DNA of 64,000 nucleotides from Enterobacteria phage vB_EcoM_IME540, in sequence record MT150133.1; one strand, written 5' to 3'. Of the stretch, positions 2,168 to 62,598 are shown in pieces. The position numbers and the translations under genes were made by a program. The notes beneath the pieces were generated by a model, which saw only the letters and a list, made by a program, of their open reading frames with translations, was not told the DNA's origin and did not search any database. How positions within the stretch are numbered: position 1 is the first letter of the stretch; every line of letters starts with the position of its first letter.

Positions 2168-2447
2168 CTTCCACCTTCATTAGTTTTGCATAACGCTCTC
2201 CGATGGCGCGACCTTCAATTGAGCACGCTTCTATAGTCCGACAACTTGAAATCTTCCAAGAAGCCGTAACATAGGCCCAATAGTCTTCGGAGGCTTTTAC
2301 GCTGGGTCTACTCATTTGCGCATAAACAGGCATCGCACTACTAGCAAATGCATCCATCAATTTATCGTTGGTACCATTTGCTAGTGAAACTGTAGGGCTT
2401 AAACATCCCGCCATAAGGATACAAGCCGCTGTACGGAAAATATCCAT
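2154..2447 (-). CDS. putative secreted protein/lipoprotein (97 aa)
   Basis: N-terminal hydrophobic segment ending ...ILMAGC (lipobox-like), then hydrophilic body. Confidence 0.4.
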   Translation of the reverse strand: MDIFRTAACILMAGCLSPTVSLANGTNDKLMDAFASSAMPVYAQMSRPSVKASEDYWAYVTASWKISSCRTIEACSIEGRAIGERYAKLMKVEDEVQ

Positions 2448-2693
2448 ACAAAAGTCCTTTGTTGTTTTATACTATTTGCCTTTCGGCCTTAACCGATAGC
2501 GATTACCAAAAGCTAAAGCTCTACGGTTAGTATTATTATTTATAGCTTTTTAAGCTTACGACAATAAGAATAGAACACGTCGTTAAAATTATGCTCAACC
2601 CAATTCCTCTGTATAGGCGAGGTAATGGAAAGCATATAATGCGCTTTAATTAAATCCATCCCATTTTTATTAGGACACTCTTTATTATTAGCA

Positions 2694-2819
2694 TTATACG
2701 TCGCTGCTACAACCTTCTATCTCTCTTTTGTAAGCCACATCATCCATGATAGGCGAAAGAACAATATAAGAAATAGCCACAGCGAACGCTAGAATTAAAA
2801 TCTTTGAATTTAGGTCCAT
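2694..2819 (-). CDS. small hydrophobic peptide (~41 aa), speculative
   Basis: Hand translation: ATG 2817-2819 preceded by GAGGG; MDLNSKILILAFAVAISYIVLSPIMDD...; below ORF-track size cutoff. Confidence 0.25.
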   Translation of the reverse strand: MDLNSKILILAFAVAISYIVLSPIMDDVAYKREIEGCSSDV

Positions 2820-2826
2820 AGTACCC

Positions 2827-3399
2827 TCAACTCGTTATTTCTATCCAGTGCTTCCTGCACAATGACACGTAAGAATCGTTGCCACCTATAGAAACTTGGG
2901 CTCCGTCCTTAATTGCGATACCATCTTGGATACGAGCCGTCATAGTAGCTTTACGGCCGCAATGGCACACACCTTTGTACTCAACGAGTTTATCTGCCGT
3001 AGCGAGTAATTCAGCAGAGCCAGGAAACAGTTTACCCTGAAAATCAGTTCTTAGCCCATAACACATAACTGGAACATTATAATTGTCTACTATCTTCGCC
3101 AGTTGTTTTATCTGTGCAGGTTCTAAGAACTGTGCTTCATCCACAAATACACAGTGGATATCTTTTTGAGATTCAGCCCAACGATAGAACTCGTATAGGT
3201 CCATATCCGGAGTCACGGCATTAGCCTCTTGACTAATCCCTATACGAGACGAAATGCTATGGCTTGATTCTCTATTGTCTACCGCGGGCTTTAAAAGGAG
3301 TACGCCCATACCACGTTCTTTGTAGTTATGAGCTGCCGTTAGCAATGAAGCGGTTTTCCCGGAATTCATCGCCGCATAGTGAAACATCAAGCTTGCCAT
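2827..3399 (-). CDS. tk: thymidine kinase
   Basis: 190 aa; P-loop AAMNSGKTASLL, C-terminal CHCG...SLCRKHW zinc motif; close match to T4 Tk as recalled. Confidence 0.92.
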   Translation of the reverse strand: MASLMFHYAAMNSGKTASLLTAAHNYKERGMGVLLLKPAVDNRESSHSISSRIGISQEANAVTPDMDLYEFYRWAESQKDIHCVFVDEAQFLEPAQIKQLAKIVDNYNVPVMCYGLRTDFQGKLFPGSAELLATADKLVEYKGVCHCGRKATMTARIQDGIAIKDGAQVSIGGNDSYVSLCRKHWIEITS

Positions 3400-4124
3400 T
3401 TAAATACAACTCCTCTATAAGAGCAATTAGGATAACCTTTGCTTATAGCTATCTTTTTAAACATATATGCTGAAGGCTTATTGGATTCTTCCCATAAGAG
3501 TTTTAATTCATCGTAAAATTTCCAAGATTCGTTTCTTATAGGAGAAGGTTTTCCTGCCATAGCGCCCTTTTTACCGTACATGGGATTCTTTTTGCCCTTT
3601 TTGGCGTTACTCATATTTTCTATGGTTTCAGCGCTATGTTTAAATCCTTTTAATTTTTTAGAGGCTAATCCTATTTTAGCTTTATGCTCATCACTAAATC
3701 CTATTCTATTGGAATAATGGTTTAAACCTTTATTAGAAGTGGTGAATTTAGAAGCTTCTATTCTGGCTTTGCTCCATTTAACTCCTTTTCTAGACCTAGA
3801 CATTTTCTGTTTAGTTAAATTAGATAATTTGGTTCCTTTCTTTTTACCTCTTCCGCCATCAGCAAAATTTAAAGAATGCTTACCATATTTTAATTTAGCC
3901 TTTTCAACTAAAGGAATTTCGGCGGCATACGCCTCTTCTTCAGATTCGAAGAATTCTAATATACGAGTTTTATAAGGATGCTTTTTACAAATATTTTTAA
4001 CTACCGTACCACTTCCATAATACCCGTCTGAAAGATTATCAGTGGAGTGTTTACCTACATAGTAATAATTTGCCTTATGGGTTTTTATTACAGTCAAGTA
4101 ATTATAATGGAATTCCTTTGCCAT
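3387..4124 (-). CDS. GIY-YIG-family homing endonuclease-like protein (seg-like)
   Basis: N-terminal YLTVIK...YYYVGKHST...GYYGSG (GIY-YIG variant); basic region with repeated K/G-rich NPMYGKKG (NUMOD3-like) motifs. Confidence 0.65.
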   Translation of the reverse strand: MAKEFHYNYLTVIKTHKANYYYVGKHSTDNLSDGYYGSGTVVKNICKKHPYKTRILEFFESEEEAYAAEIPLVEKAKLKYGKHSLNFADGGRGKKKGTKLSNLTKQKMSRSRKGVKWSKARIEASKFTTSNKGLNHYSNRIGFSDEHKAKIGLASKKLKGFKHSAETIENMSNAKKGKKNPMYGKKGAMAGKPSPIRNESWKFYDELKLLWEESNKPSAYMFKKIAISKGYPNCSYRGVVFKWQA

Positions 4125-5884: not shown

Positions 5885-6590
5885 TAAGTCCTCGGTAATC
5901 TACATTAGGGAAGCCGTTCTTAATTGCGATTTTACTAAATCTTCCACACTTGAGCTTATTATTATCTACCCATAATTTATATAATTGTGAATACATCGGT
6001 TCATGCCATATAGGGGATTTACGCAAAGAGGCTTTTTTCCTTTCTATAGTTTCTTTAGAATTTTGTATGGCTTTAAATTTTTGTCTATTTTCAGGATTTT
6101 CAAAATACTTAACCCGTTTTTCAGACATTTTAGCTTTTACTTTTGGCGAATTTAAAATTTCTTTGAGCCGTTCTTTAGAGCCTTCCTTTTCAAAATACTT
6201 TATTAAAGCCATTGAATGAGCAGCCCTATTTTCCTTTTTAGAGAAAAATAAAATTTTATTAATAGATTGCAATTTTGAAAATGATTCTTTAGCCAACTTA
6301 TAATTTTCAGAATCTACAAAATAAGACCTTTGTTTTGAATTTGAAGTAGAGCTCATATTTAACCAGGCAAAATTCAACCCATAGTGGTTTGGATTAGCTT
6401 TGGCTAGATACATATGGGCCAAATAATGTTCATCAGCATAAAGCTCAACTAAATTGTCTTGAGTGTCAGGACCACCAACACAACTCGGAATTATATGATG
6501 CTTTTCTGTATAGGCGTCATTAGGTGTATCCCTAGATAAGGCCGCATTTATTATTTTATAGTAGTCATATGGATATTTTATAGTTTCCAT
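5856..6590 (-). CDS. HNH-family homing endonuclease-like protein (mob-like)
   Basis: N-terminal EKHHIIPSCVGGPDTQDNLVELYADEH (HNH motif); basic C-terminal region; C-terminal KIAIKNGFPNVDYRG module shared with the ORF at 3387-4124. Confidence 0.65.
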   Translation of the reverse strand: METIKYPYDYYKIINAALSRDTPNDAYTEKHHIIPSCVGGPDTQDNLVELYADEHYLAHMYLAKANPNHYGLNFAWLNMSSTSNSKQRSYFVDSENYKLAKESFSKLQSINKILFFSKKENRAAHSMALIKYFEKEGSKERLKEILNSPKVKAKMSEKRVKYFENPENRQKFKAIQNSKETIERKKASLRKSPIWHEPMYSQLYKLWVDNNKLKCGRFSKIAIKNGFPNVDYRGLIDYDFSKKT

Positions 6591-6597
6591 ACTGTCC

Positions 6598-7056
6598 TCA
6601 CAAGTAAATTACTTTCGTGCTGGTTTTACCTTCTAAACGTTTAGAGTTAACAAATGCCATACGACATTTAAGGGAATATCCTTTATCAGGATGTTTACGG
6701 TCTACTGTCATACCTAGCCATAAGGTTTTATCGGTAATTTCGAGACGCAATGGCCGATACACTTTACCAGGGACAATTTCGGATTCTACATCAGGCAGAG
6801 GTTCCTGGATTAAGAATTCATGGATTTCTTTAACATGGTTATGGAGTTGCTTGAATAAAGCAAAAACGTATTTTTCGTCGATTTCACGTTGGATAGCACG
6901 GTCCAACAAGTGGTTAGAGTACTTAATAAAGAAGGCTGGGACTCCGCTCTTAATGGCGGCTTTTTTGATGGACGTATTCAGTTCACGGAATTCGGTTTCG
7001 AACTGACGACGTAATTTATTGCGGCGGATGAATACTTCTGAATTAATTTCTGACAT
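6598..7056 (-). CDS. regB: RegB-like endoribonuclease
   Basis: 152 aa; EVFIRRNKLRR...HLLDRAIQREIDE...LEITD..LWLG resemble T4 RegB as recalled; position between tk and denV as in T4. Confidence 0.6.
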   Translation of the reverse strand: MSEINSEVFIRRNKLRRQFETEFRELNTSIKKAAIKSGVPAFFIKYSNHLLDRAIQREIDEKYVFALFKQLHNHVKEIHEFLIQEPLPDVESEIVPGKVYRPLRLEITDKTLWLGMTVDRKHPDKGYSLKCRMAFVNSKRLEGKTSTKVIYL

Positions 7057-7073
7057 TTTGTAATCTCCTGTAG

Positions 7074-7113
7074 TTGATAGGTCTATAGTACCACGTCTAC
7101 AGGAGATGTAAAC
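7074..7113 (-). promoter_or_regulatory. early promoter cassette (PeSL-like) copy 2, upstream of regB
   Basis: Same core; flanked by inverted repeat CTCCTGTAG / CTACAGGAG. Confidence 0.6.
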
Positions 7114-7117
7114 TGCT

Positions 7118-7327
7118 TTATTCTTGGAATGGGGTAAGTTTTCCAGCAGCTGAACAAATTTCTACCAGTACAGGGTAAAACTCTTTCACTTGTTCAAGGC
7201 GTTGGGCTGCATACTGTACTTCACCTTCTTCGAGACAAGCCATTTGGTCGTCAAGCAAGTATTTGTGGTAGCCAGTACAGGCTTCACCGATGATACGCTG
7301 GAAATCTTGTAAACTTTCAATTTTCAT
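7118..7327 (-). CDS. hypothetical small protein (start taken at ATG overlapping upstream stop, ATGA)
   Basis: ORF track 7118-7369; internal ATG at 7327 gives translational coupling with upstream ORF. Confidence 0.4.
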   Translation of the reverse strand: MKIESLQDFQRIIGEACTGYHKYLLDDQMACLEEGEVQYAAQRLEQVKEFYPVLVEICSAAGKLTPFQE

Positions 7328-9136: not shown

Positions 9137-9553
9137 TTAAGCGTAAATAGCCTTGCCATAATGTTTGTACCAGGTAGGACGCTGTGCAATTTTTTCATCC
9201 AAACGGGTCTGAGATATAGCAATAGAAGCTTCGTGTGGAGTATAGTCACCACGGAATTCCTGAGGAATGCCACTAATGTCCTGGACAGTAGTATCCTTGA
9301 TATTAAAACCACGTTTTAAACATTCGGCTATAAGCTCAATTTGTCGCTTACGTAAAAATTCAAGCTTATCGTAAAAGAATGTAACATGGCCTGTGCCAAG
9401 GATAAAAGTAGGACTGATTTTGAAATCACGGACACGTTTACCATTAGCAACATGCTTACGAACTGCACCGAAAACACGTGGTAATTCACGATATTCAGCC
9501 ATTAAGTGTTGGTCGGCCAATTCAGATACTAAGGTAAGGTTGATACGAGTCAT
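9137..9553 (-). CDS. denV: endonuclease V (pyrimidine dimer DNA glycosylase)
   Basis: 138 aa, near-identical to T4 DenV as recalled ([34 protein letters not shown]...). Confidence 0.93.
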
Positions 9554-9570
9554 TTTTTAATCTCCTGTAG

Positions 9571-9610
9571 TTGATAGGTCTATAGTATCATGCCTACAGG
9601 AGATGTAAAC
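9571..9610 (-). promoter_or_regulatory. early promoter cassette (PeSL-like) copy 3, upstream of denV
   Basis: Same core; flanked by inverted repeat CTCCTGTAG / CTACAGGAG. Confidence 0.6.
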
Positions 9611-10009
9611 TTATTTATAGGTTTTCATCCAATTCTTGAACAAAGCTGCGACGTCTTTCTCTTTAACGTTCAGTTTAACGTCCAACATTTTACCACCGGC
9701 AGCACGTGTCTGACGAATCTTAGCAGTACCGGTTTCGCCATTCCACTCAACATAATACTGTCCGGTGTTCATTGCAATACCGTCGCCGTAGTCTTCATTT
9801 TTAGAAGTGGTGAATGCCAGCTTCATAGTCTTAGATACACGAGCCTGCATGCCTGTCTGAAGGGCATTACGAACGCGAATAACCTGAGGAGTGGCCTGGG
9901 TCAGGTTTTCATTCAGTTCTTCAGTGAACTCTTCAGATTCAAACATCGCCAAAAGTTCTTTAGATGCAGGAATTACATTCTCTGCGATAAATTCATTATA
10001 AGTTTTCAT
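9611..10009 (-). CDS. internal-protein-like (capsid-targeted) protein, ipIII position
   Basis: N-terminus [11 protein letters not shown] (capsid-targeting-like); between denV and e. Confidence 0.6.
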
Positions 10010-12731: not shown

Positions 12732-12771
12732 TTGATAGGTCTATAGTATCACACCTATAGACCTTGTACAC
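12732..12771 (-). promoter_or_regulatory. early promoter cassette (PeSL-like) copy 4
   Basis: Same core with GTGTACA -35 variant; inverted repeat AGGTCTATAG / CTATAGACCT. Confidence 0.55.
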
Positions 12772-16544: not shown

Positions 16545-16592
16545 AATATTCTCCTCTCCTCCAAATAGGGAGACCGAAGTCTCCCGGTAACA

Positions 16593-18007: not shown

Positions 18008-18047
18008 TTGATAGGTCTATAGTATCATGTTTAAAGGAGGTGTAAAC
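18008..18047 (-). promoter_or_regulatory. early promoter cassette (PeSL-like) copy 5
   Basis: Same core; lies between terminator 18069-18099 and gene start 17983. Confidence 0.6.
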
Positions 18048-21165: not shown

Positions 21166-21206
21166 TTGATAGGGCTATAGTACCATCACTAAAGCCCGTT
21201 GTAAAC
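21166..21206 (-). promoter_or_regulatory. early promoter cassette (PeSL-like) copy 6
   Basis: Variant core TTGATAGGGCTATAGTACCA with inverted repeat GGGCT / AGCCC. Confidence 0.55.
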
Positions 21207-21733: not shown

Positions 21734-21773
21734 TTGATAGGTCTATAGTATCATGCCTATAGACCTTGTAAAC
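21734..21773 (-). promoter_or_regulatory. early promoter cassette (PeSL-like) copy 7, upstream of ipI-like gene
   Basis: Same core; inverted repeat AGGTCTATAG / CTATAGACCT. Confidence 0.6.
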
Positions 21774-25195: not shown

Positions 25196-25203
25196 TATAA
25201 ATA
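25196..25203 (+). promoter_or_regulatory. late promoter (TATAAATA) for gene 53
   Basis: Exact TATAAATA 28 nt upstream of ATG. Confidence 0.6.
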
Positions 25204-25210
25204 TTAATAT

Positions 25211-25218
25211 TATTTATA
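25211..25218 (-). promoter_or_regulatory. late promoter (TATAAATA) for gene 4
   Basis: Exact TATAAATA on minus strand 26 nt upstream of gene 4 ATG. Confidence 0.6.
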
Positions 25219-29040: not shown

Positions 29041-30999
29041 ATGGCTACTCCTACGAATTACCAATTAACAAGAACCGTTAACGCTATCCCAAAAGTATTT
29101 GTGGGAGCTACGTTTGAAGAGATTAAAAAGAATATTATCGATTGGCTTTCTAGTCAGAAAGAATTCCAGGATTATGATTTCGTAGGTTCGCGAATGAATA
29201 TCCTGATTGACATGTTAGCTTACAATACCCTGTATATGCAGCAATTTGCTAACACTGCTGTATATGAATCATTTATTGGCACAGCTAACTTGCGTTCCTC
29301 TGTAGTCCAGGCTGCACAGGATAATGGCTACCTTCCTAGTTCTAAATCAGCAGCAAAAACAAGTATCATGTTGACCTGTACCCAGGCTCTTAATGAAAAG
29401 AATATTCGTATCCCACGTGGTACTAAATTCTTGGCTTATGCCCGTGATACTTCGGCCGACCCGTATGCTTTTGTTACCACGGAAAACGTTATTGCCGTAC
29501 GTGATGTTAACAACCAATATCTTCCTATTGTATCTTTAGCACAGGGTCGTATTATCCGTACCGAACTCAAGTATGACCCTAAAACTCCTATTCTTATTCG
29601 CGACCCGGATATCGACCGTCAAGAAGTTAAGCTTTATGTTGATGGTGCAGAATGGATTAACTGGACTAATAAATCAATGGTTCACGCTGGTAGCACATCT
29701 ACCATTTATTATATGCGCGAAACCGTAGATGGTAATACAGAATTCTTCTTTGGTGAGGGTGAAGCTGAGAAATCTGTTGCTGGTGGAGTATTGGAAGCTA
29801 ATTATATTGGTGGTCTAAAACCGGTTAAAGATTCTACCATTGTTATAGAATACCTTCGAACAGATGGTGAAGTTGCAAACGGTGCAGTTGACTTTAGTTA
29901 TGCTGACTCCTTAGCATATATTACGGTAGAAAAAATTACTGAAAACTACAACAACGACCCTGATTATGTGGGTGCTGATGGTGGTGGTGACCCTGAAGAT
30001 ATTGAACGTATTCGTGAATTGGCTGTAGTTAAGCGCGAAGCCCAGATGCGTGCTGTAACTGGTACAGATTATGATACATTCGTTTCGGAACGATTTGGGT
30101 CTATTGTACAAGCAGTACAAACCTTTACCGATTCAAATAAACCAGGTTATGCTTTTGTTACTATTAAGCCTAAATCCGGATTATATTTGACGGCGGTACA
30201 ACGCGAAGATATCCAAAATTATCTTTCAGAATTTAACTTGGCACCTATTACTCCTTCGGTTATTTCTCCTGACTACTTGTTCTTGAAGCATAAAATTAAG
30301 GTTTCATATGCACTGAACAAATTACAGGAATCTGAACAGTGGTTGTCAGCCCAAATCCTTTCCCAAATAGACCGTTATTATATTAACGAAGTTGAGATAT
30401 TCAACCATGGGTTCGCTAAGTCTAAAATGTTGTCTTATATTGATAATGCCGACCATAGTATCCTTGGTTCTTCTGCTACGGTGACCATGGTTCGCGAGGT
30501 ATTGAACTTTTTCAAAACACCTGAATCAGGTATTAAATACTATAATCAATACACCAACCGTTCTGTAGCTTCTAGTGAATTTGAGTTCGTCCCAACAAAC
30601 GTATCTGATGATATTAAATCTTATAACGTGCGTATTGTTGCTACAGATAAAGACGAACGGGGCGATGGTAAAATGGTTATAGGTCCTTTCCGACCTGGTG
30701 ATGTAATTGAAAACCAATACATCCAACCTTATACCGGAGATGACTTCGATAAAATGGCAGCGCCTGCAGACCAATCAGTTTACTATGTTATTGGCGAAAT
30801 TGATTATTACTCAGACTTTATTTTCTGGGATATCGCCGCAATAGGCCTTACTTCAGATCGTTTTGAAGTCCAGTCTATTGAACTTTATGCAGGGCCAGAC
30901 CAAGACAACATCTTTACCAAAGACGGTTCTTTAATCGTATTTGAAGATGACCTTCGCCCTCAGTACACAACTATAGAGTTGGAACCCATTACAATATAA
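29041..30999 (+). CDS. 6: gp6 baseplate wedge protein
   Basis: 652 aa; size and synteny. Confidence 0.88.
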   Translation: MATPTNYQLTRTVNAIPKVFVGATFEEIKKNIIDWLSSQKEFQDYDFVGSRMNILIDMLAYNTLYMQQFANTAVYESFIGTANLRSSVVQAAQDNGYLPSSKSAAKTSIMLTCTQALNEKNIRIPRGTKFLAYARDTSADPYAFVTTENVIAVRDVNNQYLPIVSLAQGRIIRTELKYDPKTPILIRDPDIDRQEVKLYVDGAEWINWTNKSMVHAGSTSTIYYMRETVDGNTEFFFGEGEAEKSVAGGVLEANYIGGLKPVKDSTIVIEYLRTDGEVANGAVDFSYADSLAYITVEKITENYNNDPDYVGADGGGDPEDIERIRELAVVKREAQMRAVTGTDYDTFVSERFGSIVQAVQTFTDSNKPGYAFVTIKPKSGLYLTAVQREDIQNYLSEFNLAPITPSVISPDYLFLKHKIKVSYALNKLQESEQWLSAQILSQIDRYYINEVEIFNHGFAKSKMLSYIDNADHSILGSSATVTMVREVLNFFKTPESGIKYYNQYTNRSVASSEFEFVPTNVSDDIKSYNVRIVATDKDERGDGKMVIGPFRPGDVIENQYIQPYTGDDFDKMAAPADQSVYYVIGEIDYYSDFIFWDIAAIGLTSDRFEVQSIELYAGPDQDNIFTKDGSLIVFEDDLRPQYTTIELEPITI

Positions 31000-31026
31000 G
31001 CCTCTTCGGAGGTTTAAGGAGATTTA

Positions 31027-42216: not shown

Positions 42217-42239
42217 TAAAAGGGCTTCGGCCCTTTTTT
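42217..42239 (+). terminator. intrinsic terminator after wac
   Basis: GGGC-TTCG-GCCC followed by TTTTTT. Confidence 0.6.
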
Positions 42240-51228: not shown

Positions 51229-51276
51229 GAATTATCAAGGAGCTTCGGCTCCTTATCCCATTCATCGGAGACTCTA

Positions 51277-55026: not shown

Positions 55027-56586
55027 ATGAAAAAGAATGCATTAGTTCAAAAATGGTCCGCTCTGCTGGAAAACGAAGCCCTTCCTGAAATCGTGGGTGC
55101 TTCTAAACAAGCTATCATTGCTAAAATTTTCGAAAACCAGGAACAAGATATTCTGACCGCTCCTGAATACCGTGACGAAAAAATCTCCGAAGCATTTGGT
55201 TCTTTCCTGACCGAAGCTGAAATTGGCGGTGACCACGGTTATGATGCTACCAATATCGCAGCTGGCCAGACTTCTGGTGCTGTAACTCAGATTGGGCCGG
55301 CAGTAATGGGTATGGTTCGTCGTGCTATTCCTCATCTGATTGCTTTTGATATTTGTGGTGTTCAGCCTCTGAATAACCCTACCGGCCAGGTATTTGCCCT
55401 TCGTGCAGTTTATGGTAAAGACCCTATCGCTGCTGGCGCTAAAGAAGCTTTCCATCCGATGTATTCTCCGGACGCTATGTTCTCTGGTCAGGGCGCTGCT
55501 GAAACTTTCGAAGCACTGGCTGCAAGCAAAGTTCTGGAAGTTGGTAAAATTTATTCTCACTTCTTCGAAGCTACCGGTGCTGCACACTTCCAGGCTGTTG
55601 AAGCCGTAACCGTTGATGCTGCTGCTACTGATGCCGCTAAACTGGATGCTGCTATTACCGCTTTGATTGAAGCTGGTAAGTTGGCTGAATTGGCTGAAGG
55701 TATGGCTACTTCTATCGCTGAACTTCAGGAAGGCTTTAACGGTTCCCAGGACAACCCGTGGAACGAAATGGGCTTCCGCATCGACAAACAAGTTATCGAA
55801 GCTAAATCCCGTCAGCTGAAAGCAAGCTATTCTATCGAACTGGCACAGGACCTTCGTGCAGTACACGGTATGGATGCAGATGCTGAACTGTCCGGTATCC
55901 TTGCTACCGAAATTATGCTCGAAATCAACCGTGAAGTTATCGATTGGATTAACTACTCTGCACAGGTTGGTAAATCTGGTATGACCAACACCGTTGGCGC
56001 TAAAGCTGGTGTGTTTGACTTCCAGGACCCGATTGATATCCGTGGTGCTCGTTGGGCCGGTGAGAGCTTTAAAGCCCTTCTGTTCCAGATTGATAAAGAA
56101 GCAGCCGAAATCGCTCGTCAGACCGGTCGTGGTGCTGGTAACTTCATCATCGCTTCCCGTAACGTAGTTAACGTACTGGCTGCAGTTGATACTTCTGTAA
56201 GTTATGCAGCTCAAGGTCTGGGTCAAGGTTTCAACGTTGACACAACCAAAGCAGTATTTGCCGGTGTTCTTGGTGGTAAATATCGCGTTTACATCGACCA
56301 GTATGCACGTTCCGATTACTTCACCATCGGTTATAAAGGCGCTAACGAAATGGACGCAGGTATCTACTATGCTCCGTACGTTGCACTGACCCCGCTGCGT
56401 GGTTCCGATCCGAAGAACTTCCAACCGGTAATGGGCTTCAAAACTCGTTACGGTATCGGTATCAACCCGTTCGCTGACCCGTCTGCACAGGCTCCTACCA
56501 AACGTATTCAGAGCGGTATGCCTGACATCGTTAACAGCCTTGGTCTGAATGGTTACTTCCGTCGCGTATATGTTAAAGGTATCTAA
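55027..56586 (+). CDS. 23: major capsid protein gp23
   Basis: 519 aa; synteny; late promoter within 3' end of gene 22. Confidence 0.95.
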   Translation: MKKNALVQKWSALLENEALPEIVGASKQAIIAKIFENQEQDILTAPEYRDEKISEAFGSFLTEAEIGGDHGYDATNIAAGQTSGAVTQIGPAVMGMVRRAIPHLIAFDICGVQPLNNPTGQVFALRAVYGKDPIAAGAKEAFHPMYSPDAMFSGQGAAETFEALAASKVLEVGKIYSHFFEATGAAHFQAVEAVTVDAAATDAAKLDAAITALIEAGKLAELAEGMATSIAELQEGFNGSQDNPWNEMGFRIDKQVIEAKSRQLKASYSIELAQDLRAVHGMDADAELSGILATEIMLEINREVIDWINYSAQVGKSGMTNTVGAKAGVFDFQDPIDIRGARWAGESFKALLFQIDKEAAEIARQTGRGAGNFIIASRNVVNVLAAVDTSVSYAAQGLGQGFNVDTTKAVFAGVLGGKYRVYIDQYARSDYFTIGYKGANEMDAGIYYAPYVALTPLRGSDPKNFQPVMGFKTRYGIGINPFADPSAQAPTKRIQSGMPDIVNSLGLNGYFRRVYVKGI

Positions 56587-56602
56587 GATATAACCTTATT
56601 AT

Positions 56603-56630
56603 GGGAGACTTCGGTCTCCCATTCTTGTTT
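56603..56630. terminator. bidirectional terminator hairpin between gene 23 (+) and small ORF (-)
   Basis: GGGAGAC-TTCG-GTCTCCC then ATTCTTGTTT; same 18-nt hairpin also at 16568-16585. Confidence 0.55.
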
Positions 56631-56635
56631 CTGTA

Positions 56636-56902
56636 TTATGCAATCTTAACTCGGCGGTTGATGATATCACGGAAGTCAATACGATTTTCTTGGATTTTCA
56701 GCCAGTTACCAGATTTGTCTTTGGTATGGGTAGAGTATTCACCGTTCCACCAGAAGTCGGTAGCATAAGCCATGGCTTCGTATTTCTTAACTAAGGCATT
56801 CACTGCATTACCATTAGGATTGTTACCGAATTTTTCTACCAGAGCTTTGATGTCTTTATCAAGAGCGGAAAGAGTAGTACGAATAAAGTTTAACTTGTTC
56901 AT
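56636..56902 (-). CDS. small hypothetical early protein antisense to capsid module
   Basis: Start at ATG 56900-56902 preceded by GAGGAG; early-promoter cassette (core 56921-56961) immediately upstream. Confidence 0.5.
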   Translation of the reverse strand: MNKLNFIRTTLSALDKDIKALVEKFGNNPNGNAVNALVKKYEAMAYATDFWWNGEYSTHTKDKSGNWLKIQENRIDFRDIINRRVKIA

Positions 56903-56920
56903 TTTTAATCTCCTCATGTT

Positions 56921-56961
56921 TTGATAGGTCTATAGTAACATGTGAGAATCTTGCTGTAAAC
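56921..56961 (-). promoter_or_regulatory. early promoter cassette (PeSL-like) copy 8, in late region
   Basis: Same core upstream of small ORF 56636-56902; back-to-back with gp24 late promoter. Confidence 0.55.
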
Positions 56962-56967
56962 AACTTT

Positions 56968-56975
56968 TATAAATA
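56968..56975 (+). promoter_or_regulatory. late promoter (TATAAATA) for gene 24
   Basis: Exact TATAAATA 28 nt upstream of ATG. Confidence 0.6.
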
Positions 56976-57003
56976 AACATATACCCTCAATAAGGAAAGC
57001 GCA

Positions 57004-58287
57004 ATGGCAAAGATTAACGAATTACTGCGCGAGTCAACAACTACTTCCAGCAACTCATTGGGTCGCCCTAATCTTGTTGCTTTGACCCGTGCTACAACCA
57101 AATTGATTTACCGTGATATTATCGCCGAACAACGTACTAGCCAGCCTATTGCTGCACTGTATGGTGTCAAATATCTTACCCCTGATAATGAATTTAGTTT
57201 CCAGACAGGTGCCTCTTATGGTGGTGAAGTTGGTTCTAAAGACCGTGAAACTATCCCAGAACTCACAGATAAGGCCCAGGCGATTGCTCAGGGTGAATAT
57301 TTCAAGTACCAGAATGTGGTTTATAAGGCTCTTAAAGCAAGCCCACTCGCGTCCACTAGCGCCACAGAATTGGCTGATGCTCTTCAAGAAGGTTTAGTGT
57401 CATTAACATGTCGTCTGGTTCCTGATGCTGCCCATACCACTAAATTTGAAGCGAGTGATGTAGAAATCTCTGATGCTGTATTCCAGGTTAATAAATGGAA
57501 TGCTCCGGTTAAGACCCGTAAATTGAAGACGGCTTTGACTGTAGAATTAGCGCAGGATATGGAATCAAATGGCTTTGACGCGCCGGCGTTCTTAGAAGAC
57601 CTCTTGGCTACAGTAATGGCAGATGAAATTAATAAAGACGTTCTGCAATCTCTAATAACCGTATCCAAACGTTATAAAGTTACTGGTGTATCTGATAACG
57701 GCATCATCGATTTGTCTTATGACAGTGCTCCTGAATCTGCACGTAAACTTTATGAACTCGTTTGTGAGATGAATTCTGAAATCCAGAAAACTACTTCTTA
57801 TTCTGGCACGTTTGTTGTGGCTTCAAGTCGTGTGGCTGCAATGCTTGCAGGTTCTGGCTGGTTAAAACATAAACCCGAAGATAATAATTGGCTTCCGGAA
57901 ACTGCATACGGATATTTGTTGAATGGTCTGCCTCTGTTTTGTGACGTTAACAGTCCATTAGATTATGTTACCGTTGGTGTTAAAGAGAATTACGGCGGTA
58001 ATGAAGTTGTCGGTTCTATTTTCTACGCTCCCTATACCGAAGGCTTAGATTTAGATGACCAAGAACACGTCGGTGCTTATAAGGTTATTGTTGACCCGGA
58101 TTCATTACAACCTTCTATTTCTCTGATGGTTCGTTATGCACTATCAGCTAACCCGTACACCGTGGCTAAAGACGATAAAGAAGCTCGTGTTATCGATGCA
58201 ACCAATATGGATTTAATGGCTGGACAGAGCAATATGTCTTATCTGGTTGGCGTTAAACTTCCGGCAATTATTTACGAGGCTGATTAA
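57004..58287 (+). CDS. 24: capsid vertex protein gp24
   Basis: 427 aa (same length as T4 gp24); TATAAATA at 56968-56975. Confidence 0.88.
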   Translation: MAKINELLRESTTTSSNSLGRPNLVALTRATTKLIYRDIIAEQRTSQPIAALYGVKYLTPDNEFSFQTGASYGGEVGSKDRETIPELTDKAQAIAQGEYFKYQNVVYKALKASPLASTSATELADALQEGLVSLTCRLVPDAAHTTKFEASDVEISDAVFQVNKWNAPVKTRKLKTALTVELAQDMESNGFDAPAFLEDLLATVMADEINKDVLQSLITVSKRYKVTGVSDNGIIDLSYDSAPESARKLYELVCEMNSEIQKTTSYSGTFVVASSRVAAMLAGSGWLKHKPEDNNWLPETAYGYLLNGLPLFCDVNSPLDYVTVGVKENYGGNEVVGSIFYAPYTEGLDLDDQEHVGAYKVIVDPDSLQPSISLMVRYALSANPYTVAKDDKEARVIDATNMDLMAGQSNMSYLVGVKLPAIIYEAD

Positions 58288-59567
58288 TGTCTAAGATTGT
58301 AGACCTAATTAAAGAATCCACATTGACGGCTGCCAGCTCGGTTGGCCGTCCTGCTCTTCTTTCATACACCCAAGCAACTAATAAACGAATCTTTAAAGCC
58401 CTAGTTGCTGAACAAAAAACAAATCAACCGGTTGCTGCTCTGTATGGGGTACGTGTACTGAATCCTGACGACAAAATGACTTATCTTGGTGGAGCAACAT
58501 TTGCGGGCCAGATTGGTATGACGGAACGTGAAAATATTCCAGAATTTACTGATTCATCTACAGCTTATGCGGTCGGTGATATGTTCCAGTTTGAAAGCGT
58601 AGTGTTTAAAGTTCTAGAAGCATCTCCTTTCGCCGGAACCACAGAAACCAACCTCAGCGAAGTTATTTCTGAAGCAGTGGCAGCCGGCCATATCCGTATG
58701 GCGTCGGATGCTGCTATTACTTCTAAATTTGAACAAGGCCATCCTGAAATTGCTGAAACCGGATTCCGTATCGACAAATGGCAATCTGAAGTTAAATCGC
58801 GTAAACTGAAAACTTCATTGACAGTCGAATTAGCCCAAGACCTAGAATCTAACGGGTTTAATGCTCCTAATTTCGTTGAAAATCTGCTAGGCATTCAAAT
58901 GGCAGAAGAAATTAATAAGGATGTATTACAGTCATTAATTACCGTGAGCTCTCGTTTTAAAGTCCAGGGTGTTTCTGAAAAGGGTGTATTAGACCTTACC
59001 AACCCTCGCTACGATAATGCCCAGGACCGTGCTCGCACATTATATTATTATATGTGTGAGATGAACTCTGCCGTCCAACGACAGACTTCTTTTGCCGGGA
59101 CTTATGCAGTAGCTAGTTCTCGTTGTGCTGCTATTCTCGCCGCCTCTGGTTGGGTTGAGAAAAAGGAAGACCAGGACGAATTGGCTTATGGTATATTAAA
59201 GAATGGCCTACCACTTTATGCTGATATGAATAGTCCATGTGATTATGTTATTGTTGGTGTAAATGCCCAGATGGGTGAAGGACAGACGGTCGCATCTTTA
59301 TATTATGCGCCTTATACGGAAGGTTTGAATGTGGTTGACGAAGAAGGTGATACTTCAGTTGGTGAATTTAAGGTTATTGTTGACCCGGAAAGCTTACAAC
59401 CTACAGTAGCATTGCTTGCTCGTTATGCATTGACTGCAAACCCTTATACCGTCGCTAAGGACGATAAAGAAGCCCGCATTATTGATGGTTCTGATATGGA
59501 CAAAATGGCTAATCAAAGTCAATTGAGTTCTTATCTCGGCGTAAAATTACCGCCTTTAGAAAAATAA
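58287..59567 (+). CDS. capsid vertex protein gp24 paralog (second copy)
   Basis: 426 aa, alignable along full length with the upstream gp24 copy, roughly half identical by eye; ATGA-coupled. Confidence 0.8.
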   Translation: MSKIVDLIKESTLTAASSVGRPALLSYTQATNKRIFKALVAEQKTNQPVAALYGVRVLNPDDKMTYLGGATFAGQIGMTERENIPEFTDSSTAYAVGDMFQFESVVFKVLEASPFAGTTETNLSEVISEAVAAGHIRMASDAAITSKFEQGHPEIAETGFRIDKWQSEVKSRKLKTSLTVELAQDLESNGFNAPNFVENLLGIQMAEEINKDVLQSLITVSSRFKVQGVSEKGVLDLTNPRYDNAQDRARTLYYYMCEMNSAVQRQTSFAGTYAVASSRCAAILAASGWVEKKEDQDELAYGILKNGLPLYADMNSPCDYVIVGVNAQMGEGQTVASLYYAPYTEGLNVVDEEGDTSVGEFKVIVDPESLQPTVALLARYALTANPYTVAKDDKEARIIDGSDMDKMANQSQLSSYLGVKLPPLEK

Positions 59568-59592: not shown

Positions 59593-60600
59593 TTATTTGG
59601 ATACTAGTTCAATCCATACGGCTCGTAGGGTATCTTTTACACACTCAACGAGCTGCTTTTTAACTTCAACAGGATTTTCTGCATCAGTTAATTCTAATTC
59701 TTCACGGGCAGCTTCTTCTAAGATATCTTGGACTGCCAAGCCCATTACCTTTCCAAAATCCTTCGGCGATACTTCGCCAATCTTACTGATAACGTTGTTA
59801 ATACGGTTAACAGTCACATAATCAGTGAATTGCCACATCAAATCCATATCGTCTTGGGACAAAACTACAGCCGCCTTAATAGGCTTATCAGACTTTTTCT
59901 TCTCGCTGAATTTAGAGTTCTTACATTTAATCGCCACGCGATTTCCATTAGGAAGCCAGATAGGAATATCGGGTTTAAGTACAAAGCCTTCAGCCGTGAA
60001 TACTTTACCTTCTACCTTAGGAATAAAGTCTGTAGAGTTTGCAATAGTTAGGCCTGCGTTATCAACCGCAAAATTATAATCAGGAATAACTGAATCAAAG
60101 TCATTAGGTAATTTAATAAGGTCTTCAAAGCTACCAGTAGCCAGACATGGCGCGACCTTAAACTTATGGATAATACAGAAGGCTTCCATCAATGTATCGG
60201 TTAGAACAGATTCTGAACCATCTTCTTTAGTAACTCGGATATCGAACACATAAAAGTCTTTATCGCCGTAGTCCACATTCTTCTGGATGCCTGTCCCAGC
60301 GAATTCGCCATAAATCTGGTATGACTGATAATTAATCGATTCAATTAGATGTTGAACTGATTTAATAGAATCAGCGTAGTTCTTAAGTACAATTTCATAA
60401 CCATAGAAATCTTCAGCAGGGAGGATAGGGCCAGTGCGCTTGGCGCATGTGACTGCGTCACGTTCTATGATTAAACTAAAGTTGGTTCCATGAATCTTCT
60501 CACGTGCTACCCATTCACCACCAGTCAAACCGTTAGTACGGAGTTTTTCGATAAACTTACTGTTGTAGTGGTTTTCGAGACTGCTATATTTCTTGAACAT
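59593..60600 (-). CDS. rnlB: RNA ligase 2
   Basis: 335 aa; [20 protein letters not shown]...[16 protein letters not shown]... near-identical N-terminus to T4 Rnl2 incl. ligase motif I KxHGxN. Confidence 0.93.
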
Positions 60601-62576: not shown

Positions 62577-62584
62577 TATAAATA
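62577..62584 (+). promoter_or_regulatory. late promoter (TATAAATA) for uvsW
   Basis: Exact TATAAATA 28 nt upstream of ATG 62613. Confidence 0.55.
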
Positions 62585-62590
62585 TAACTA

Positions 62591-62598
62591 TATTTATA
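62591..62598 (-). promoter_or_regulatory. late promoter (TATAAATA) for inh
   Basis: Exact TATAAATA on minus strand 33 nt upstream of inh ATG. Confidence 0.55.

Follow-up and report, generated by a model that had tools for sequence, protein, structure and literature searches.

A conserved minus-strand gene behind a predicted early promoter between capsid genes 23 and 24 of the T4-type coliphage vB_EcoM_IME540

Genes and signals between genes 23 and 24

Enterobacteria phage vB_EcoM_IME540 (MT150133.1) is a JS98/Bp7-like T4-type coliphage of the genus Dhakavirus. The window, meaning the whole stretch of 64,000 nt that was analysed, includes a locus with the gene order g22, g23 (plus strand), an 88-aa open reading frame (minus strand, hereafter ORF88), g24a (plus), g24b (plus) and rnlB (minus). 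Over 801 bases the locus is 99.3–99.6% identical to Escherichia phages LHE83, PSD2002, Bp7 and QL01, and 96% identical to JS98. Its features are listed below, with the evidence for each in brackets.

55027–56586, plus strand: gene 23, major capsid protein, 519 aa, the upstream late gene (ORF list; gp23 annotation in JS98 and IME08)
56601–56634, plus strand: intrinsic terminator of gene 23 (terminator scan, folding, covariation)
56636–56902, minus strand: ORF88, of the JS98 orf173 / RB69ORF188c-189c / PHROG 6003 family (ORF list, profile match, dN/dS)
56910–56915, minus strand: Shine-Dalgarno sequence GAGGAG (sequence; 7 nt before the ATG at 56902)
56921–56937, minus strand: predicted -10 element TACTAT (56937–56932) and conserved start region AGACCTATCAA (repeated 17-mer, aligned cassettes)
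56955–56968, minus strand: predicted -35 element GTTTACA (56961–56955) and A-rich upstream stretch AAAAGTT (cassette alignment, seven-lineage footprint)
56968–56975, plus strand: late promoter TATAAATA of gene 24a (motif; conserved in all aligned lineages)
57004–58287, plus strand: gene 24a, vertex protein, the downstream late gene (ORF list, JS98-type annotation)
58287–59567, plus strand: gene 24b, tandem paralogue of 24a (ORF list)
59593–60600, minus strand: rnlB (gene order)

The tandem vertex-protein paralogues 24a and 24b are annotated already in JS98, IME08 and VR7. Mosigviruses have a single g24, yet carry ORF88.

ORF88 runs from an ATG at 56902 to a TAA at 56636, with the hexamer GAGGAG (56915–56910) placed 7 nt from the start codon. 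A first-pass annotation of the same DNA had described a minus-strand ORF with a strong Shine-Dalgarno sequence between g23 and g24, and was accurate on each of these points, the order g23, ORF, g24 being upheld in relatives as well. An in-frame ATG further upstream (56917) overlaps the Shine-Dalgarno sequence and is without one of its own, and the leader RNA, taken from the predicted transcription start, is unstructured (0 kcal/mol).

Purifying selection identifies ORF88 as a real protein-coding gene. Nei-Gojobori dN/dS ratios lie between 0.08 and 0.13 (JS98 0.10, IME08 0.11, VR7 about 0.1), and the protein matches the profile of PHROG 6003, a family labelled as of unknown function, from end to end (E = 6.8e-50, residues 1–88 against profile positions 1–88 of 90). 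A search for homologues, suggested in the first-pass annotation, returned an ORF88 homologue in 233 phage records by tblastn. The exact protein is deposited as "hypothetical protein" in several Dhakavirus entries; identity is 100% to the Bp7, LHE83 and QL01 proteins and 98% to JS98 orf173, falling to 64% for the VR7 homologue (VR7ORF190c) and to 33–36% for those of PhAPEC2 and EP32B. ORF88 is therefore no new entry to the databases, its annotation going back to the JS98 and RB69 genomes; a literature search under the ORF names gave no match. The antisense position between g23 and g24 is found in all Tevenvirinae examined, namely JS98, IME08, VR7, PhAPEC2, EP32B and three metagenomic lineages, and the genera that carry the gene there without exception are the Dhaka-, Gapriver- and Mosigviruses.

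Not every copy is intact. In RB69 (NC_004928, stretch 6292–6532) the gene is split by two frameshifts into ORF188c and ORF189c, one base being inserted and one deleted relative to PhAPEC2, a sign of a pseudogene or else of errors in the old sequencing. Shortened versions occur in some other phage entries (P0007 and P0014). Taken together, the truncated and frameshifted copies show that ORF88 is not needed under all conditions.

The slot between g23 and g24 is a hot spot whose content varies among relatives. PEi26, Mexia and EcS1 have nothing there. In T4 and PP01 it holds segD on the minus strand, in agreement with the homing endonuclease that the first-pass annotation had placed at this position in T4, while Yersinia phage TG1 has a 504-aa homing endonuclease on the minus strand (stretch 2202–3716) and UPEC03 a homing endonuclease on the plus strand. 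ORF88 fills the slot in Dhaka-, Gapriver- and Mosigviruses, and phages of the IME08 type have both ORF88 and segD. Measured against PEi26 and EcS1, the extra module of vB_EcoM_IME540 covers about 56635–56967, roughly 333 bp, and is made up of promoter, leader and ORF. It has the g23 terminator on one side and the g24 late promoter on the other, neither being part of it.

Two of the occupants carry further details. A promoter-like GTTTACA-N17-TAAAAT lies upstream of the TG1 endonuclease. In IME08, segD (stretch 3246–3925) sits exactly between the ORF88 stop codon and the T-tail of the g23 hairpin; its ATG, with no obvious Shine-Dalgarno sequence, follows the ORF88 TAA after 4 nt, so that segD would be co-transcribed from the ORF88 promoter and would form the second gene of an early operon. 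An apparent replacement of the ORF88 C-terminus where segD is inserted, suggested by tblastn coverage of residues 1–72 only, was rejected, as the alignment contains a full-length IME08 protein.

It could be argued that ORF88 is a spurious ORF or the remnant of a homing endonuclease with no function of its own, given that it lies in the segD slot, that the RB69 copy is frameshifted and that several database entries are truncated. We consider this barely credible. A dN/dS of about 0.1 effectively refutes it, searches of Pfam and NCBIfam gave no match above noise to a GIY-YIG or HNH nuclease domain, and ORF88 lacks the character of a free-standing homing endonuclease (seg/mob). Moreover, an intact ORF88 stands beside a full segD in IME08, and homologues are present in unrelated phages.

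Promoters and the gene 23 hairpin

Reading along the minus strand, ORF88 is preceded by the order AAAAGTT-GTTTACA-(17 nt ending in TGT)-TACTAT-AGACCTATCAA. The early-promoter cassette that had been proposed at 56921–56961, with a -35 GTTTACA, a 17-nt spacer and a -10 TACTAT, proves to be one of a family of eight. Its 17-mer TACTATAGACCTATCAA (56921–56937) occurs eight times in the 64,000-nt window, always on the minus strand, and never in 100 shuffles. Seven of these copies lie in the early region at 1.7–21.8 kb and the eighth at the g23/g24 locus; the -35 element is GTTTACA in seven cassettes and GTGTACA in one, at the same spacing, and all eight have a Shine-Dalgarno sequence and an ATG 10–25 nt downstream. 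A generic sigma-70 scan is uninformative by itself, with 12 sites against 12.6 expected.

The further copies of the cassette, GTTTACA-N16/17-TACTATAGACCTATCAA, lie on the minus strand at 1704–1720, 7074–7090, 9571–9587, 12732–12748, 18008–18024, 21166–21182 and 21734–21750. In the cassettes at 7040–7118 and 9537–9615 the spacer repeats the downstream Shine-Dalgarno region in inverted form (TCTCCTGTAG...CTACAGGAGA, about -19 kcal/mol), a pairing that would mask the Shine-Dalgarno sequence solely in transcripts reading through from upstream. The spacer of the cassettes at 12748 and 21750 pairs with the -10/start region (AGGTCTATAG...CTATAGACCT). A hairpin across the promoter sequestering the Shine-Dalgarno sequence was considered for ORF88 as well and set aside, being weak there (-11.8 kcal/mol, z = -1.2) and strong at the 7090 and 9587 cassettes.

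The promoter was also aligned across seven lineages (vB_EcoM_IME540, VR7, PhAPEC2, T4 and three metagenomic phages). Invariant in all seven are TnTACA, the G of the TG motif and positions A2, A5 and T6 of the -10 element, with no invariant column in the spacer, a footprint that marks a selected sigma-70 promoter. The site has the elements of a T4-type early promoter, GTTTAC(A), a spacer of 17±1 bp, TAnnnT with an upstream TG and an A-rich stretch around -40, in line with the consensus described previously (PMC1524935), and like other members of that family it lies 5' of a correctly oriented ORF and recurs genome-wide on the early strand. For RB69, Nolan et al. (2006; PMC1524935 supplements) predicted both promoters at the homologous site, the early one as Pe:109605 on the minus strand and the late one as Pl:109573 on the plus strand. 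No minus-strand late promoter TATAAATA was found upstream of ORF88. Transcription is predicted to start near 56925, and, judging by the promoter type, would be early.

On the other strand, the g24 late promoter TATAAATA at 56968–56975 stands back-to-back with this cassette, 6 nt from the -35 element, as the first-pass annotation had it; in the MAFFT alignment of the late promoter, T4 needs a one-base gap. The A-rich upstream stretch of the early promoter reaches as far as 56968, the base at which the late promoter begins, and the divergent early and late promoters thus occupy adjacent DNA; presumably they are used at different times. Late promoters also adjoin one another elsewhere in the window. 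At 25196–25218 and 62577–62598, pairs of TATAAATA face apart with their boxes 7–8 bp from each other (22–23 bp span), forming near-palindromes between divergent late genes.

The hairpin downstream of g23 has the core GGGAGAC-UUCG-GUCUCCC (56603–56620) within a 9-bp stem over 56601–56622, followed by the T-rich tail TCTTGTTTCTGT. It had been described as a bidirectional terminator shared by gene 23 and ORF88, a claim that does not hold up well. The terminator scan called it terminator-like on the plus strand only. Folding does give a stable stem-loop on both strands (-17.0 kcal/mol on the plus strand, z = -4.3; -14.8 kcal/mol on the minus strand; z below -4 on both); a U-tract is not present on both, the tails being UCUUGUUUCU on the plus and AUAAUAAGG on the minus strand, and the UUCG loop, like the T-tract, appears in the g23 sense only.

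Comparison across lineages leads in the same direction. Stem bases change in compensating pairs (GGGAGAC/GTCTCCC, GGGAACC/GGTTCCC, GGGACC/GGTCCC), five of six lineages and also T4 have a UUCG loop when read in the g23 direction, and the g23-side tail TTCTTGTTT is conserved while the ORF-side tail is not; among the lineages compared, VR7 alone has a U-tract on the ORF strand (UUUUUAUUU). At the homologous site of RB69, TransTerm places a terminator on the plus strand only (PMC1524935 supplements). What decides the matter is the pair PEi26 and EcS1: both lack an antisense gene and have the same 18-mer behind g23, with TATAAATA and g24 directly after it. The hairpin is accordingly the g23 terminator and not a shared bidirectional element, for which support is weak. 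A search of Rfam with 56300–57200 gave no match.

The first-pass annotation had further noted an identical hairpin in the early region. The exact copy is indeed present at 16568–16585, with none expected by chance (shuffles), and lies on the opposite strand, a point that had gone unnoticed. Among the UUCG-loop hairpins in the window with a stem of at least 5 bp, all eight have UUCG in the local sense direction, which explains the minus-strand placement of the 16568 copy; since that copy is oppositely oriented relative to early transcription, the two copies mark no shared early cassette. Hairpins of this kind are found at 1756–1781 and 16568–16585 on the minus strand and at 30997–31016, 42218–42237, 51237–51254 and 56601–56622 on the plus strand, most of them intergenic and terminator-like. 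The one at 1756–1781 lies directly upstream of an early promoter, in a PeSL-like arrangement.

These repeats invite the proposal that the locus is a mobile cassette of the PeSL type, in which recombination between promoter or hairpin repeats recently brought the ORF into the slot. The promoter repeat is common to the seven early-region copies over 17 of 17 nt, giving near-identical repeats with variable ORFs, an identical hairpin lies 40 kb away, and the cassette at 1742–1781 does have a stem-loop directly upstream of its promoter; the slot is plastic among T4-like phages, and where PeSLs occur within the conserved core, the genes they accompany are plastic and non-essential (Comeau et al., 2014; PMC4122927). 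Nevertheless, no stem-loop adjoins the ORF88 promoter. Upstream of its -35 element lies the late promoter TATAAATA, and the hairpin, about 300 bp from the promoter with the ORF in between, is in g23 orientation and occurs in phages that lack the ORF. In addition, homologues only 33–64% identical occupy the same position in three genera, which argues for an old and mostly vertical residence, and recent arrival by such recombination is therefore very unlikely.

The protein and its relatives

The ORF88 protein has 88 residues (10.2 kDa, pI 9.6) and is hydrophilic and soluble. An AlphaFold2 model built on an 11-sequence alignment (pLDDT 83.6) has helices at residues 3–25, 31–48 and 77–87; residues 49–76, which link the last two, form an extended segment. 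Across ten diverse members M1, K3, F6, G31, N32, N35 and Q71 are invariant; this set consists of an NGN helix cap and scattered core residues and includes none of catalytic type.

Similarity searches add little beyond the family itself. Pfam, NCBIfam and PADLOC returned sub-threshold noise only (DUF5380 at E = 0.11, T9SS, TatB, NsnC), a sequence profile search of the PDB nothing below E = 0.15, and Foldseek no match with E below 2 in the PDB and one family member only in BFVD. At the level of fold, the matches were to generic helical bundles only, designed mini-binders ranking first. An HMM search of 1.84 billion representatives gave 10 hits, of which about 7 look like true relatives, all of 84–90 aa and none annotated. 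Three candidates were discarded: P0017 and P0020 are long repeat proteins in which short repeated stretches had matched spuriously, and P0021, of 160 aa, contains a short near-identical ORF88 fragment and is probably an assembly chimera.

An enzymatic role or a place in the capsid is unlikely for ORF88. It probably serves as an accessory early protein whose mode of action is binding, most likely to a host or phage macromolecule; the idea of a host-factor binder draws on size, fold and context, with no support from homology. The protein is probably highly expressed early.

Beyond the T4 group, homologues share about 31–40% identity with ORF88. Those of the Vequintavirinae phage ABPH49 (3995–4261) and of a similar contig (L020, 5001–5264) belong to long arrays of small same-strand ORFs, and a third, on a siphovirus-like contig (L021, 5001–5255), lies between a GpJ-type tail-tip gene and a replication module. 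All are flanked by GAAA-loop hairpins rather than by the T4-type cassette, and their base composition differs. Copies in such a different context, which includes blocks of early or accessory genes of unrelated phages, indicate that the gene travels independently of the capsid genes and of the T4-type promoter, as would be expected of a horizontally mobile accessory gene.

Interpretation and comparison with known systems

In our reading, to which we give a probability of about 0.8, the locus contains an ordinary T4-type accessory early gene, in which a sigma-70 promoter, an unstructured leader and a strong Shine-Dalgarno sequence lead to a basic, helical binder protein. Right after infection, host RNA polymerase would initiate near 56925 on the minus strand and produce a short mRNA of about 300 nt, from which the 10-kDa protein, basic and helical, would be made. 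The transcript would reach the reverse complement of the g23 hairpin 15 nt past the stop codon, where this structure could stabilise the mRNA 3' end. As there is no U-tract in the ORF direction, termination at the hairpin would probably be inefficient, and some antisense read-through into g23 is plausible, even likely; phages with an empty slot show that such read-through is no general requirement. Expression would presumably end once early promoters are silenced and, late in infection, g23 and g24 are transcribed heavily through the locus. The protein itself may serve as a host-takeover or counter-defence factor through stoichiometric binding.

The same read-through raises the question of whether the antisense transcript might be the main product, silencing or insulating leaky g23 and g24 early in infection, with the ORF as secondary cargo. 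Several features fit: the promoter position is kept despite other cargo (segD in T4), the minus side of the hairpin is without a U-tract, the scan found no minus-strand terminator-like site inside g23, and the A-tract of the early promoter overlaps the late promoter. They are outweighed by the clear purifying selection on the ORF, with its strong Shine-Dalgarno sequence and unstructured leader, and by PEi26, EcS1 and Mexia, which do without any antisense promoter; in VR7, furthermore, a U-tract lies in the ORF direction, meaning that read-through is not conserved. An RNA-based role is hence improbable, and an early protein-coding gene remains our preferred account. The first-pass interpretation as a whole is partly supported.

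The promoter, terminator and late-promoter context was predicted for RB69 as early as 2006, and among T4-like phages such an arrangement is nothing unusual. Scattered accessory ORFs with early promoters, also within late clusters, are a known trait of T4-type phages, and the weight of the finding for genome biology is accordingly small. Its practical value lies in an early protein present in about 230 genomes of therapeutic-type coliphages and skipped by T4-homology screens. In the early-protein screen of Mosigvirus AV110, candidates were picked by homology to T4 early proteins; since T4 is without ORF88, that screen excluded it by design.

A broader combination of ideas is possible, though we hold it only tentatively: that ORF88 represents an overlooked family of early proteins that crosses phage types and neutralises a host factor or defence, and that the promoter of the slot is ancestral and active in T4. 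If true, the family would span Straboviridae, Vequintavirinae and a siphovirus-like contig, and would have been missed by functional screens because early genes were chosen by homology to T4, which lacks it. An ancestral, active slot promoter would in turn explain the early segD RNA and the detectable SegD protein of T4.

Among known systems, AsiA is an example of a small helical T4 early protein that binds host machinery. Proteins of this kind resemble ORF88 in length (about 90 aa), helical content and early sigma-70 promoter context, and the likeness is one of analogy only, there being no detectable similarity in sequence or fold. PeSL cassettes (Arbiol 2010; Comeau 2014) share with the locus a conserved, repeated early promoter joined to a plastic, non-essential ORF in the core; they differ in that the ORF88 locus has no stem-loop fused to the promoter, a hairpin that belongs to g23 and no sign of recent movement.

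Another comparison is the segD locus of T4. Slot, orientation, the UUCG-loop terminator of g23, the g24 late promoter and an alignable sigma-70-like promoter are the same, whereas the cargo is a 223-aa GIY-YIG nuclease in place of an 88-aa helical protein. Upstream of segD, on the minus strand of T4 (NC_000866, stretch 6234–6300), ATTTACA-N17-TATTAT with an upstream TGn aligns to the ORF88 promoter. In a review by Edgell et al. (2010; PMC2988022) it is stated that no promoter was found for segD and that its transcript levels are presumably vanishingly low; the alignment suggests, on the contrary, that segD has a promoter of its own. [quoted passage not shown] By analogy, segD being another cargo gene whose copy of the promoter has diverged, this lends indirect but experimental support to early firing of the antisense promoter in the g23/g24 slot.

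Closest of all are JS98 orf173, RB69ORF188c with 189c, and VR7ORF190c, which are the same gene in the same position and orientation, without material difference; where the RB69 reference copy is frameshifted, that of vB_EcoM_IME540 is intact.
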